From Candidatus Magasanikiibacteriota bacterium (GTDB lineage: Bacteria > Patescibacteriota > Patescibacteriia > Magasanikbacterales > UBA922), in contig JAKITS010000001.1 in the NCBI GenBank assembly GCA_021648085.1, positions 816,064-880,063 of the forward strand: 64,000 nucleotides of DNA, read 5' to 3'. Numbering within the stretch: position 1 is the first letter of the stretch; each line of letters starts with the position of its first letter. This document shows, in pieces, positions 27,217 through 37,648 of this stretch. Below the pieces are notes generated by a model. That model saw only the letters and a list, made by a program, of their open reading frames with translations. It was not told the DNA's origin and made no database searches. The position numbers and the translations under genes are program-made.

Positions 27217-27313
27217 GTTTAAAATTGAAAAATTTATATATTATTTAAAATGATTTAGTATTTTGTTATTTTTCAAATAATAAAATACCCTCAATTTTTC
27301 AATTGAGGGTAAA

Positions 27314-27394
27314 TACCGGAAACGGGAATCGAACCCGTACGCTTTAAGGCGGGAGATTTTAAGTCTCCTGTGTATACCATTTCACCATTCCGGC
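27314..27394 (-). tRNA. tRNA-Leu (UAA), copy 1
   Basis: minus-strand GCCGGAATGGTGAAATGGTATACACAGGAGACTTAAAATCTCC + long variable arm + CGGGTTCGATTCCCG; anticodon loop CUUAAAA; own promoter (TTGACA-17-TAATTT, minus, about 27420-27455). Confidence 0.8.
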
Positions 27395-27667
27395 ACAAGA
27401 AATTAAAAAATAATGAACTATTTATGAAATTATCATATTTTTTGTTTTTTGTCAATCTTTTTGGATTAAATTTTGGATAAATTATAAAAATAAATATATT
27501 TATTCATTCCCACAACAAAAAAACAGCAATACTGCTGTTTTTGTGCCGCGTTCGAGGGTCTCCCTGTGTAGTTTTGGTTTTCACCAAACCTACCCTTCGA
27601 TTCCCGACATGACACAAGACTTTGTGTCATTCCCACAACAAAAAAACAGCAATACTGCTGTTTTTTG

Positions 27668-27752
27668 TGCCGCGGGCGGGAATCGAACCCGCACTCCTTT
27701 AGGGGGAACAGGATTTTAAGTCCTGCGTGTCTACCAATTCCACCACCGCGGC
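27668..27752 (-). tRNA. tRNA-Leu (UAA), copy 2
   Basis: minus-strand GCCGCGGTGGTGGAATTGGTAGACACGCAGGACTTAAAATCCTG + long variable arm + TTCGATTCCCGCCCGCGGCA; immediately followed by hairpin terminator 27640-27667. Confidence 0.85.
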
Positions 27753-33211: not shown

Positions 33212-33913
33212 ATGAATCAAGCATTACTTGCAATTTTCACACCAATAATTGCAGCGATCACAGGTCTTTTTAAAATAATTTCTTCTGTTGGAGAAGGTGA
33301 GCGAGGAATAGTTCTTCGTTTTGGTAAGGCAAGATGCGATGAAAAAGGAAATCCAAGAATTTTTGAACCAGGTATCGTTTGGTTGCTGCCTTTTGCAGAC
33401 ACAATTCACATACGACACATAAAACAGCAAACTATTCATTTCAAAGGTCAGCGAATTATATTGAAAAACCAGCTATCTTTTTATGTAAGTGCTGTTGTAA
33501 TTTTTAGAATAAACGAAGTTTACAAAGCTCTTTTTGAAATTGAAAATGTAGATGCTTCTATTGAGGATCTTTGTATGGGAATTTTGCGGGATGTACTCTC
33601 TAAGCGAGATCACAAGACTATTTCTGAGACGAAAAAAATAGCAGACGAACTTTTAAAAGAAGTAAAATCTAGAGCAGAAGAATGGGGTGTTGAGTTTATT
33701 CAGTTTAACCTCACAAATTGTGATCCAACTCCAGAAACTGCAAATGTAATTATTTTGGAAACAGGCACAAGGATAAGGTTGGACGCTTTGAAAAAGTTTA
33801 CAAAAGAATCCAAAGAAGTTTTAGAAGGTTTAAATCCAAATTTGGCTGCAGTTTTGATCGGTGCACCGCTAGTTGCAACAGTTTCAAAGTCAGACGAAAA
33901 AAATAAGAGCTAG
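33212..33913 (+). CDS. SPFH/band-7 (prohibitin/HflC-like) domain protein
   Basis: 233 aa; N-terminal TM then GERGIVLRFGK...PGIVWLLPF block typical of SPFH; single perfect DnaA box at 33104-33112 upstream. Confidence 0.6.
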   Translation: MNQALLAIFTPIIAAITGLFKIISSVGEGERGIVLRFGKARCDEKGNPRIFEPGIVWLLPFADTIHIRHIKQQTIHFKGQRIILKNQLSFYVSAVVIFRINEVYKALFEIENVDASIEDLCMGILRDVLSKRDHKTISETKKIADELLKEVKSRAEEWGVEFIQFNLTNCDPTPETANVIILETGTRIRLDALKKFTKESKEVLEGLNPNLAAVLIGAPLVATVSKSDEKNKS

Positions 33914-33933
33914 GTAATCCTAGCTCTTTTTAT
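33906..33933. terminator. bidirectional terminator (agagctaggtaatcctagctct); near-copy at 34777-34806
   Basis: perfect hairpins with T/A runs between SPFH gene (+) and Fic-like gene (-); second copy after the 34461-34775 gene. Confidence 0.75.
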
Positions 33934-33935
33934 AT

Positions 33936-34376
33936 CTATTCTTTTTTTGGTGGGAAATGGTGAGGCCACTCCCCAGTATCTCTTTTTACCGCCATTCGCC
34001 AAATGAGATCAGCAACTCTTCCGTTGCCGTCGCAAAAAGGCCATGCGAGCCTAAATTCATTAAAAAGTTCTTCTGGCTTAATCATTGTTAAAAACATCCA
34101 ACAAAAATGTTGGTAAGCTCTTTTTGTGCTAAATTCCGCGCCTTTTGGCTTACGAAAAATTTGTCTATTTTCTTCTGGCTCTATAAGTTTAGCCAGTCTT
34201 ATAATAAAATTTTCTATTTCTCTATTTTTTTCTTTATATCGAGAAGTAGAAAATTTAAACTGCTTTGCTATTCTATAAGCTTTTGTAAAATTTTCTATTT
34301 GATGCAATTCAATAGCACCTCTTTTGGCGCAGCACACCCCAATAATAGCAATATCTTTGTTACTTAGTGCACCCAT
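33936..34376 (-). CDS. Fic/Doc-family-like protein with degenerate active-site motif (WPFCDGNGR instead of HPFx[DE]GNGR)
   Basis: 146 aa; C-terminal LAWPFCDGNGRVADLIWRM matches Fic core but catalytic His is Trp (TGG codon confirmed on DNA). Confidence 0.5.
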   Translation of the reverse strand: MGALSNKDIAIIGVCCAKRGAIELHQIENFTKAYRIAKQFKFSTSRYKEKNREIENFIIRLAKLIEPEENRQIFRKPKGAEFSTKRAYQHFCWMFLTMIKPEELFNEFRLAWPFCDGNGRVADLIWRMAVKRDTGEWPHHFPPKKE

Positions 34377-34460
34377 TTTTCCTCCTTAGGTTTAAGTTAT
34401 TTTTAAAGATTATAATATAATAACCAATTTTATAGATTCTGTCAAGTTTATTGACAGAAA

Positions 34461-34775
34461 ATGGTTTTTGTGTTATTATTTTTTTATTGTTCATTTCAAA
34501 AGGAGGACGAAGGTATGTCTGGTTGTAAAGAATTTGCTTTTAATTTTAATGGAAAACAAGAAGAACGAGTTGGTTTTTCTTCGGAGGACTCTGTTGAGCT
34601 AAAAGAAGGAGAAATATTGCAAAAAGGTGATTTTAGGTTTAGTACAGCCTTTGGTTGGGTTTTGATTGAAGTAAACTTAATTGGGACAGAAGTCCCAAAA
34701 AAACCAAGATATTGGATTAAAGCAAAAAAAAGAGGGACGGGGTATCTTCGTCCAAAGAAAAATGTTCAAAAATAG
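34461..34775 (+). CDS. hypothetical small protein
   Basis: likely start at MSGCKEF (34515) after AAAGGAGG RBS; promoter TTGACA-17-TATTAT at 34452-34480; terminator 34777-34806. Confidence 0.4.
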   Translation: MVFVLLFFYCSFQKEDEGMSGCKEFAFNFNGKQEERVGFSSEDSVELKEGEILQKGDFRFSTAFGWVLIEVNLIGTEVPKKPRYWIKAKKRGTGYLRPKKNVQK

Positions 34776-34846
34776 TAAAAAGCTAGGTAATATACCTAGC
34801 TTTTTTATTTGTATCTTCTATTTTTTTAAAGTATAATATAAATTGT

Positions 34847-37165: not shown

Positions 37166-37648
37166 ATGGAAAAACAGAAAATTTTCTACTGTTTTTTGTG
37201 TCAAAAAAAATCTGAACAAAATACCTTATGCACTTCTTGTAATATCATTAGTAAAGGTTTAGGTATTGTTGTATTATTCACTGTATTTTTTTCTGGATGT
37301 TTTGTTAGTAGTCCGCCATCGTGGTTTGGTGGTGCTGTTAGTATTTGTTTTGTTTTGAGTATAGTTTTTTTGTGGCCTATTTTTTTGATAAGCTTTATAA
37401 AAAATATGACAACAAAAGAGGAATTTAATGAAATTAATGTTGGTAAATTTGCTGAAAAATATAACACATTGTTTAGGACATTTTTTATCGCTGTTATATT
37501 TATTTTATTATTGTTAATTGCGGTATTTTTTGCTCCAAATCCATTTTTTAGTATTTTTGTTGGAACAGTCATGGCAATAGTAGTCTTGTTTGTGGGTAGT
37601 ATTTTTTTATTATTAGCTTTGGCAATCCAACACACAAAAAATATATAA
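37166..37648 (+). CDS. hypothetical membrane protein with N-terminal C4 zinc-ribbon-like motif
   Basis: CFLCQKK...CTSC then 4 TM helices. Confidence 0.4.
   Translation: MEKQKIFYCFLCQKKSEQNTLCTSCNIISKGLGIVVLFTVFFSGCFVSSPPSWFGGAVSICFVLSIVFLWPIFLISFIKNMTTKEEFNEINVGKFAEKYNTLFRTFFIAVIFILLLLIAVFFAPNPFFSIFVGTVMAIVVLFVGSIFLLLALAIQHTKNI

Follow-up and report, generated by a model that had tools for sequence, protein, structure and literature searches.

The mini-Fic gene and its expression signals

In this study, we analyzed a gene for a predicted small Fic-family protein in a 64-kb window, the term being used here for the whole stretch of 64,000 nucleotides examined, which belongs to a 984-kb contig of a metagenome-assembled Candidatus Magasanikbacteria genome. 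The gene, hereafter the mini-Fic gene, occupies positions 33936-34376 on the minus strand, comprises 146 codons beginning with ATG, and is deposited at NCBI as L3J07_04200 under the product name 'hypothetical protein'. At the site where Fic proteins carry HPFx[D/E]GNGRxxR, its 146-residue product (the window protein) reads WPFCDGNGRVAD, with a tryptophan, Trp112, in the position of the catalytic histidine. The translation includes EFRLAWPFCDGNGRVADLIWRM and NEFRLAWPFCDGNGRVADLIWRMAVKRDTGEWPHHFPPKKE. A PFxDGNGR-type motif occurs only once across the six-frame translation of the window, and no paralogue was retrieved from the window by tblastn.

We observed a full set of putative expression signals around this open reading frame (ORF). 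A ribosome-binding site (AAGGAGG, 34381-34387, minus strand) can be read from the sequence 4-5 nucleotides upstream of the ATG, and a sigma-70-like promoter, TTGACA-17-TATTAT, with 11 of 12 matches, lies at 34417-34445 on the same strand. The -35 box of this promoter is one arm of a perfect palindrome at 34437-34459, TTCTGTCAA-gttta-TTGACAGAA, and this palindrome may serve as an operator or as a regulatory site common to both promoters. Its second arm forms the -35 box (TTGACA) of a divergent sigma-70-like promoter, also matching at 11 of 12 positions, that faces a small orphan ORF, and the divergent promoter pair spans 34417-34479. At the opposite end of the mini-Fic gene lies a two-way intrinsic-terminator-like hairpin (33905-33928, both strands) with a 10-bp stem, five G-C pairs and T-rich tails on both strands. 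This hairpin is common to the mini-Fic gene and a convergent SPFH gene (33212-33913; Band_7, E value 2e-27), so that an earlier reading made from the letters alone (the sequence-only reading) was right about both the convergent SPFH gene and the shared bidirectional terminator. The GC content of the mini-Fic gene equals that of the surrounding DNA and is uniform throughout the region. Taken together, the gene is genuine and apparently expressed.

The divergent orphan ORF (L3J07_04205, 86 amino acids, 34515-34775, plus strand) lies upstream of ruvB and has a consensus ribosome-binding site and its own terminator-like hairpin at 34777-34805. No homologue of it was found in 5.8 billion proteins, and it has no Pfam match. 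It contains SVELKEG, which comes close to the Fic inhibition motif [ST]xxxE[GN] but exceeds it by one residue. The surrounding genes are housekeeping genes, namely nrdB, nrdA, ruvB, purL and purM, together with genes for a bPH_2 protein and a DUF1294 protein.

Fic assignment and the altered active site

Searches with the window protein alone yielded little. Comparison with Pfam Fic (PF02661) by HMMER, the check that the sequence-only reading had proposed, gave a borderline result, in that the match, at E 0.073 and over residues 103-122 only, scored 14.4 bits and stayed below the gathering score of 24; Fic homology emerged through family profiles. An NCBIfam search returned only a spurious PEPCase match (E 0.11), PHROGs gave E values of 0.06-0.18 and nothing meaningful, a phmmer search of the PDB returned only a spurious eS6 match, and PADLOC showed no match at E<=1 for either the mini-Fic protein or its SPFH neighbor. 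In a word-indexed search of 5.8 billion proteins, the window protein matched itself alone, and a single-sequence AlphaFold prediction, with a predicted local distance difference test score (pLDDT) of 43.5, was of no use.

An exhaustive phmmer scan over 1.84 billion cluster representatives retrieved 101 representatives at E<1e-3, 19 of which reached E<1e-10; they were mostly proteins of 150-190 amino acids that aligned from residue ~4 to ~144 of the window protein. From these searches we worked with an alignment (A1) of 66 sequences, that is, the window protein and 65 homologues. A leave-one-out family hidden Markov model (HMM), built without the window protein, matched it at 112.6 bits (E 9e-37), placing residues 1-144 on model positions 1-153 of 161. 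Pfam Fic was matched by 61 of the 66 aligned sequences (E <= 0.01; best 1.6e-12), and the family profile found the solved chains of human FICD at 1.1e-11 over positions 21-139, as well as more than 30 other solved Fic proteins; a search of the BFVD viral fold library gave weak Fic matches only. The predicted fold has the helical core of Fic proteins, in which two central helices flank the active-site loop.

Since the direct Pfam match lies below threshold, the Fic assignment rests on the homologues, the profile searches and the fold. Judged on these grounds, the window protein is truly Fic-fold and has its closer affinity with FICD-type and class II Fic proteins, not with Doc, to which the sequence-only reading had likened it; we found neither the Doc motif nor a phd gene. 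A reading in which PFxDGNGR arose by chance in an unrelated small helical protein could appeal to the sub-threshold or absent direct matches (Pfam Fic at E 0.073, NCBIfam, PADLOC and the spurious eS6 match in the PDB). We consider its probability next to negligible, as it is refuted in practice by the end-to-end match to the leave-one-out HMM at 112.6 bits, the Pfam Fic matches of 61 of the 66 aligned sequences and the retrieval of FICD by the family profile.

According to the codon table, the degenerate motif is W112-P-F-C-D-G-N-G-R-V-A-D123 (34008-34043, minus strand), the family consensus being H-P-F-x-D-G-N-G-R-v-G-[D/H]. Trp112 aligns without a gap with the histidine that is kept in 63 of the 65 homologues, which bears out the central claim of the sequence-only reading, a small Fic-family protein with tryptophan for the catalytic histidine. 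Its TGG codon lies at 34041-34043 (minus strand), rather than at 34004-34006, where that reading had placed it. In the other motif columns the homologues carry proline in 65/65, aspartate in 63/65 and the first arginine in 64/65 cases, and the window protein keeps P113, F114, D116, G117, N118, G119 and R120. The claim that the rest of the motif is intact therefore holds for PFxDGNGR and fails beyond it. Gly122, two residues past the motif arginine and present in 64 of the 65 homologues, is alanine in the window protein, and the position of the second motif arginine (HxFxDGNGRxxR) is Asp123. At this last position the homologues have histidine (31), aspartate (21) or other residues, and arginine is not among the six commonest. 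Engel and colleagues reportedly described in 2012 that the second motif arginine pairs with the inhibitory glutamate in canonical Fic proteins.

Because the source is a metagenome-assembled genome, we considered whether the true codon specifies histidine and Trp112 reflects a sequencing or assembly artefact, and we regard this as highly improbable. Conversion of CAT or CAC to TGG takes three adjacent base changes, so that Trp112 is not a single-base error; the viable paths run via Tyr, Cys, Arg or Gln, and never via His. There is no frameshift on either side, and nearby codons also depart from the family consensus (I111A, E109R and G122A). The reading frame follows the family alignment both upstream and downstream of W112, on which ground a double frameshift hiding a CAT codon (out of frame, ...TCG CAT GGC CTT...) was rejected. 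An alternative genetic code was likewise rejected, as TGG encodes tryptophan in every genetic code, those of bacteria included.

The departures from the family extend beyond Trp112. Eight of the 30 columns conserved in at least 80% of the homologues are violated in the window protein (Q15C, Q19R, Y105F, E109R, I111A, H112W, G122A and L141F), and five of these eight fall in or close to the catalytic loop or in the Q-helix at the N-terminus. Besides the motif residues named above, R75, A33, Y34, F108, W126, W137, P138 and the PP pair are kept. With a mean identity to the subgroup of 33.7%, against 38-43% for typical members, the window protein is modestly more diverged.

In the N-terminal helix, the window protein reads C15-C-A-K-R19 (34320-34334, minus strand) where alignment A1 shows Q-C-E-x-Q for the family. 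Position 19 is glutamine in 63 of the 65 homologues and has been lost in three of the 66 sequences, namely the window protein (His to Trp), P0090 (His to Asn, Gly to Arg) and P0056 (Asp to Asn, Arg to His). This amounts to three of the four sequences with a degenerate motif versus none of the 62 with an intact one (hypergeometric p ~9e-5). Because Q19 is lost only together with a degenerate motif, Q19 and the catalytic loop appear to form one functional unit that has decayed here, and we infer that Q19 is part of the active-site apparatus of the subfamily. When a class II phage Fic protein (ESNAIEG ... HPFVDGNGRTGR) was aligned to the family HMM, its S-xxx-E fell over Q15xxxQ19, ungapped and with low posterior probability. 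At the positions so aligned with the class II inhibition motif [S/T]xxxE[G/N], the family has QxxxQ and the window protein C15xxxR19. Together with aspartate or histidine for the second motif arginine and the restriction of Q19 loss to degenerate motifs, this suggests an uncharacterised variant of Fic active-site organisation in the mini-Fic subfamily.

The 'flap' is shortened as well. Residues 66-83 (34128-34181, minus strand), for which the family has GYRxxPVxFxxG..., read IFRKPKGAEFSTK in the window protein, and the HMM alignment shows IFRKPKGAEF followed by a gap of ~9 residues. The segment after the conserved flap arginine has 29 residues, the shortest among the 66 sequences (median 40). 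In the structural model, the flap is coil without strands and has the lowest pLDDT in the protein (76-77).

The mini-Fic subfamily and its genomic settings

Almost all phmmer relatives share the motif IHPFxDGNGRvG[D/H]LLW[K/A]. Alignment A1 further shows, N-terminal to the motif, the QCExQ helix, AY..AK, the flap-like IEPxN..GYRxxPVxF and ..RAM.., and, from the motif onward, YxEFExIHPFxDGNGRvG.LLW and a C-terminal GxWPxxLPP. Two PHROGs of unknown function, 5978 and 11900, are matched by ~60 of the 66 aligned sequences. The closest relative, P0006 (IHPFEDGNGRVGDLLWRM), has 41% identity and lies on a cellular, low-GC contig, where its neighbors are rplJ, rplL and a DJ-1 gene. The relative P0089 is accompanied by small same-strand genes and an AcrVA2-like gene, and P0069, a 'Fic family protein' of a Thorarchaeota metagenome-assembled genome, by many small genes and a Phage_T4_Y00F match. 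His-bearing members were observed in small same-strand gene arrays (L242 1643-2686 and 6001-6564; L244 113-598 and 2081-2434) that include a gene of the AcrVA2-like anti-CRISPR family or a Phage_T4_Y00F-like gene and that look like phage early-gene or counter-defence neighborhoods.

Among IMG/VR viral contigs, we identified a sister subgroup, ECxRQ ... HPFxDGNGRxGxI[LV][WY]N, with L081 at 114 bits as an example. Mini-Fic-like domains also occur within giant IMG/VR ORFs, at residues 1994-2131 of an ORF of more than 2150 amino acids (L082, 1-6450) and at residues 440-573 of a 1719-residue ORF (L095, 3-5159). The searches of sequenced phage isolates found no subfamily member beyond a weak generic Fic match, and close relatives of the window protein were found neither by tblastn against 50,697 phage genomes nor in the metagenome scan. 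Profile scans of genome contigs (A2) and metagenomes (A3) returned mostly generic larger Fic proteins among the matches listed. The sole viral-contig match to a degenerate DNA pattern for DGNGRxG[DH]LxW (L241) lacked an ORF of at least 60 amino acids and was taken as chance. Pfam scans of ten longer members revealed no informative domain fusion except one cupin fusion.

The few neighborhoods read showed no recognisable conserved partner gene, and the small divergent ORFs beside the mini-Fic gene and P0006 showed no evident similarity by eye. The sequence-only reading had framed the gene as antitoxin-less; this framing does not fit a family that has a helix in cis at the class II inhibitory position and, in those few neighborhoods, no partner gene. 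Beyond the window protein, degenerate members include P0090 (His to Asn), P0100 (His to Cys) and P0096 (motif deleted). The subfamily is uncharacterised and largely phage-associated, with glutamine for the inhibitory glutamate and aspartate or histidine for the second arginine. It may, though with low probability, catalyze a Fic reaction not yet described.

Elsewhere in the window, we observed two tRNA-Leu(taa) genes on the minus strand (27313-27395 and 27667-27752), ~270 bp apart, an apparent local duplication. A hydrophobic ORF of 160 amino acids without a Pfam match (37166-37648, plus strand) is covered over nearly all of its length by an antisense ORF of 144 amino acids (37201-37635, minus strand), in a very AT-rich stretch with a GC content of 0.24-0.28. 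Base composition probably accounts for the antisense ORF as an artefact, and its presence indicates that long chance ORFs do arise in this window.

Function of the His-less protein and comparison with known systems

In the Fic mechanism, the target is docked by the flap and its hydroxyl loses a proton to the motif histidine, and metal and phosphates are held by the motif aspartate and the GNGR nest (PMC2686095, PMC8401265, PMC4454073). Mutation of this histidine ends Fic toxicity even where the motif is degenerate, as in Fic2 H184A (PMC5651007). Because the motif histidine is the established general base and is absent here, we consider the window protein to be most likely a catalytically dead Fic-fold protein, and Fic-type transfer, whether phosphoryl or nucleotidyl, would be very unlikely.

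The protein might still be an enzyme of altered chemistry or specificity, in which another residue or a substrate-assisted mechanism replaces the histidine or a different reaction takes place at the DGNGR nest. The window protein still has the metal-binding Asp116 and an unaltered GNGR anion nest, and the whole subfamily is off the AMPylation consensus, with aspartate or histidine for the second arginine and glutamine for the inhibitory glutamate. Tryptophan, however, is unable to serve as a general base, and the flap-like segment, which would position the target, is shortened. Doc and AnkX, which are non-canonical Fic enzymes, keep the histidine. Fic proteins with non-canonical motifs do carry out phosphorylation and phosphocholination (PMC8401265; PMC4454073), but the known non-canonical enzyme Fic2 likewise keeps its histidine and loses toxicity as H184A (PMC5651007). 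In the window protein, Q19, E109, I111 and G122, which co-vary with an intact active site, are lost as well, a pattern of relaxation rather than of retuning. Because these coupled residues decayed together, we favor loss of catalysis over a re-tuned specificity and regard an altered enzyme as unlikely. Of the options offered by the sequence-only reading, a pseudo-enzyme or a remnant is thus favored over altered specificity, given the joint loss represented by Q19R, E109R, I111A, G122A and the short flap.

We tentatively favor a maintained pseudo-enzyme that binds rather than modifies, a reading to which we give somewhat less than an even chance, because the helical Fic fold, the PFxDGNGR loop and the C-terminal tail have been kept. 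In this model, loss of the histidine general base and of the co-varying active-site residues would abolish Fic-type transfer, whereas the retained fold, the PFxDGNGR loop with its phosphate-binding nest and metal-binding aspartate, and the C-terminal tail would support a binding function. The bound partner would be either a nucleotide or phosphate ligand or a protein that is modified by active relatives. Both the continued maintenance and the identity of the ligand are speculative. A decaying relic should also be counted as a real possibility, though less than probable. On this account, a formerly active mini-Fic gene, perhaps derived from a phage or mobile element, would be drifting without function and open by luck. 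Horizontal arrival followed by decay is plausible because the relatives often sit in phage-like contexts. The relic reading can further draw on the singleton status of the protein, its loss of several near-invariant residues and part of the flap, its greater divergence from the subgroup (33.7% versus 38-43% mean identity) and the dispersal of degenerate or motif-deleted members across the family.

What speaks for maintenance, and in most of the following points also against a relic, is the state of the gene. The ORF is open although 5% of single-base changes would give a stop codon, and none of 200,000 composition-matched shuffles of it remained open. PFxDGNGR, W126, W137, P138 and the PP pair (WP..PP) are exact despite a change of the histidine codon at all three bases. 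The strong 11/12 promoter, the consensus ribosome-binding site and the terminator are intact. The gene further shares the GC content of its surroundings in a housekeeping neighborhood (nrdAB, ruvB, purL/M). The host contig is ~1 Mb, and dead genes tend to be eliminated from small genomes like this one. Several points weigh against the reading favored here. The best relative has 41% identity, so that purifying selection after the loss of the histidine is not measurable; the scattered degenerate members P0090, P0100 and P0096 also fit recurrent decay; and the structural model is shaped by the family alignment and carries no specific information on the effect of Trp112. In addition, the His-bearing member P0067 also violates eight conserved columns, so that the number of violations has no diagnostic value by itself and their positions matter.

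A more specific version of the maintained pseudo-enzyme, which we consider quite unlikely, is that the dead mini-Fic protein is kept by this ultra-small bacterium as a non-catalytic decoy or 'reader'. The idea arises because active His-bearing mini-Fic proteins are common in phage-like contigs. The cellular copy would bind the same target or nucleotide and would either shield the target from a phage-delivered mini-Fic protein or sense its modification. Such a mechanism, if true, would amount to immunity by a pseudo-enzyme.

If the protein is maintained, it would represent a compact natural Fic pseudo-enzyme outside pathogen effectors, in a reduced candidate phyla radiation (CPR) genome, where genes that are retained are usually useful. 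If it is a decaying relic, the result would be an annotation note only, 'Fic-like, catalytic His absent'. The gene merits the label 'Fic-fold protein, catalytic His absent (W112)'. Since a plain Pfam run misses the window protein, the analysis also shows how useful exhaustive profile searches can be when orphan CPR proteins are studied.

With respect to known systems, the subfamily resembles the FICD/HYPE-type, class II Fic adenosine monophosphate transferases in its PFxDGNGR active-site loop at the N-terminus of a helix, its conserved flap-like GYRxxPVxF and an N-terminal helix in cis that corresponds in place to the inhibitory helix. Unlike these enzymes, the window protein is essentially a bare core of 146 residues, has tryptophan for histidine and aspartate for the second motif arginine, and has a shortened flap; the [ST]xxxE of class II proteins is QxxxQ in the subfamily and CxxxR in the window protein. 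Doc, of the Phd/Doc system, shares the small size and the Fido superfamily, but the window protein has neither the HxFx(D/N)(A/G)NKR motif nor an upstream phd antitoxin gene. A class I FicTA antitoxin gene was not found beside the mini-Fic gene, where the only small neighbor is the ORF at 34515-34775 with its near-miss SVELKEG. Judged by motif and gene neighborhood, the window protein is neither a Doc nor a FicTA toxin.

The mini-Fic relatives (P0006, P0003, P0011 and P0069; PHROGs 5978 and 11900) are alike in full-length alignment at 33-41% identity, in length class, in [D]LxW[RK] after the motif and in the C-terminal W..GxWPxxLPP tail, whereas they keep I-H-P-F, G122, Q19, E109 and a longer flap. 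Many of them lie in phage-like contigs, whereas the window protein and P0006 have chromosomal housekeeping settings.

The closest parallels in kind are BepC and Bep8 of Bartonella and AvrB of Pseudomonas syringae, which keep the fold and the loop (PFxxGN) and have lost catalytic motif residues. BepC has no detected enzymatic activity and acts via GEF-H1 binding (PMC8401265), Bep8 has the reduced motif PFxxGNE, and AvrB, which is without a Fic motif, binds adenosine diphosphate and a target peptide (PMC8401265, PMC2686095); Fic clades without crucial residues have been singled out as potentially inactive (PMC4454073). These proteins are, however, large secreted virulence effectors with extra domains from host-associated Proteobacteria and are not specifically related in sequence to the window protein, which is a stand-alone protein of 146 residues encoded by a Patescibacteria (CPR) genome and shows no identified secretion signal or partner. 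Because degenerate, fold-keeping Fic domains are already known from AvrB and the Bartonella Beps, the novelty is modest. What is new in comparison with them is a naturally His-less mini-Fic protein in a CPR bacterium, and the more interesting by-product is the uncharacterised subfamily to which it belongs.
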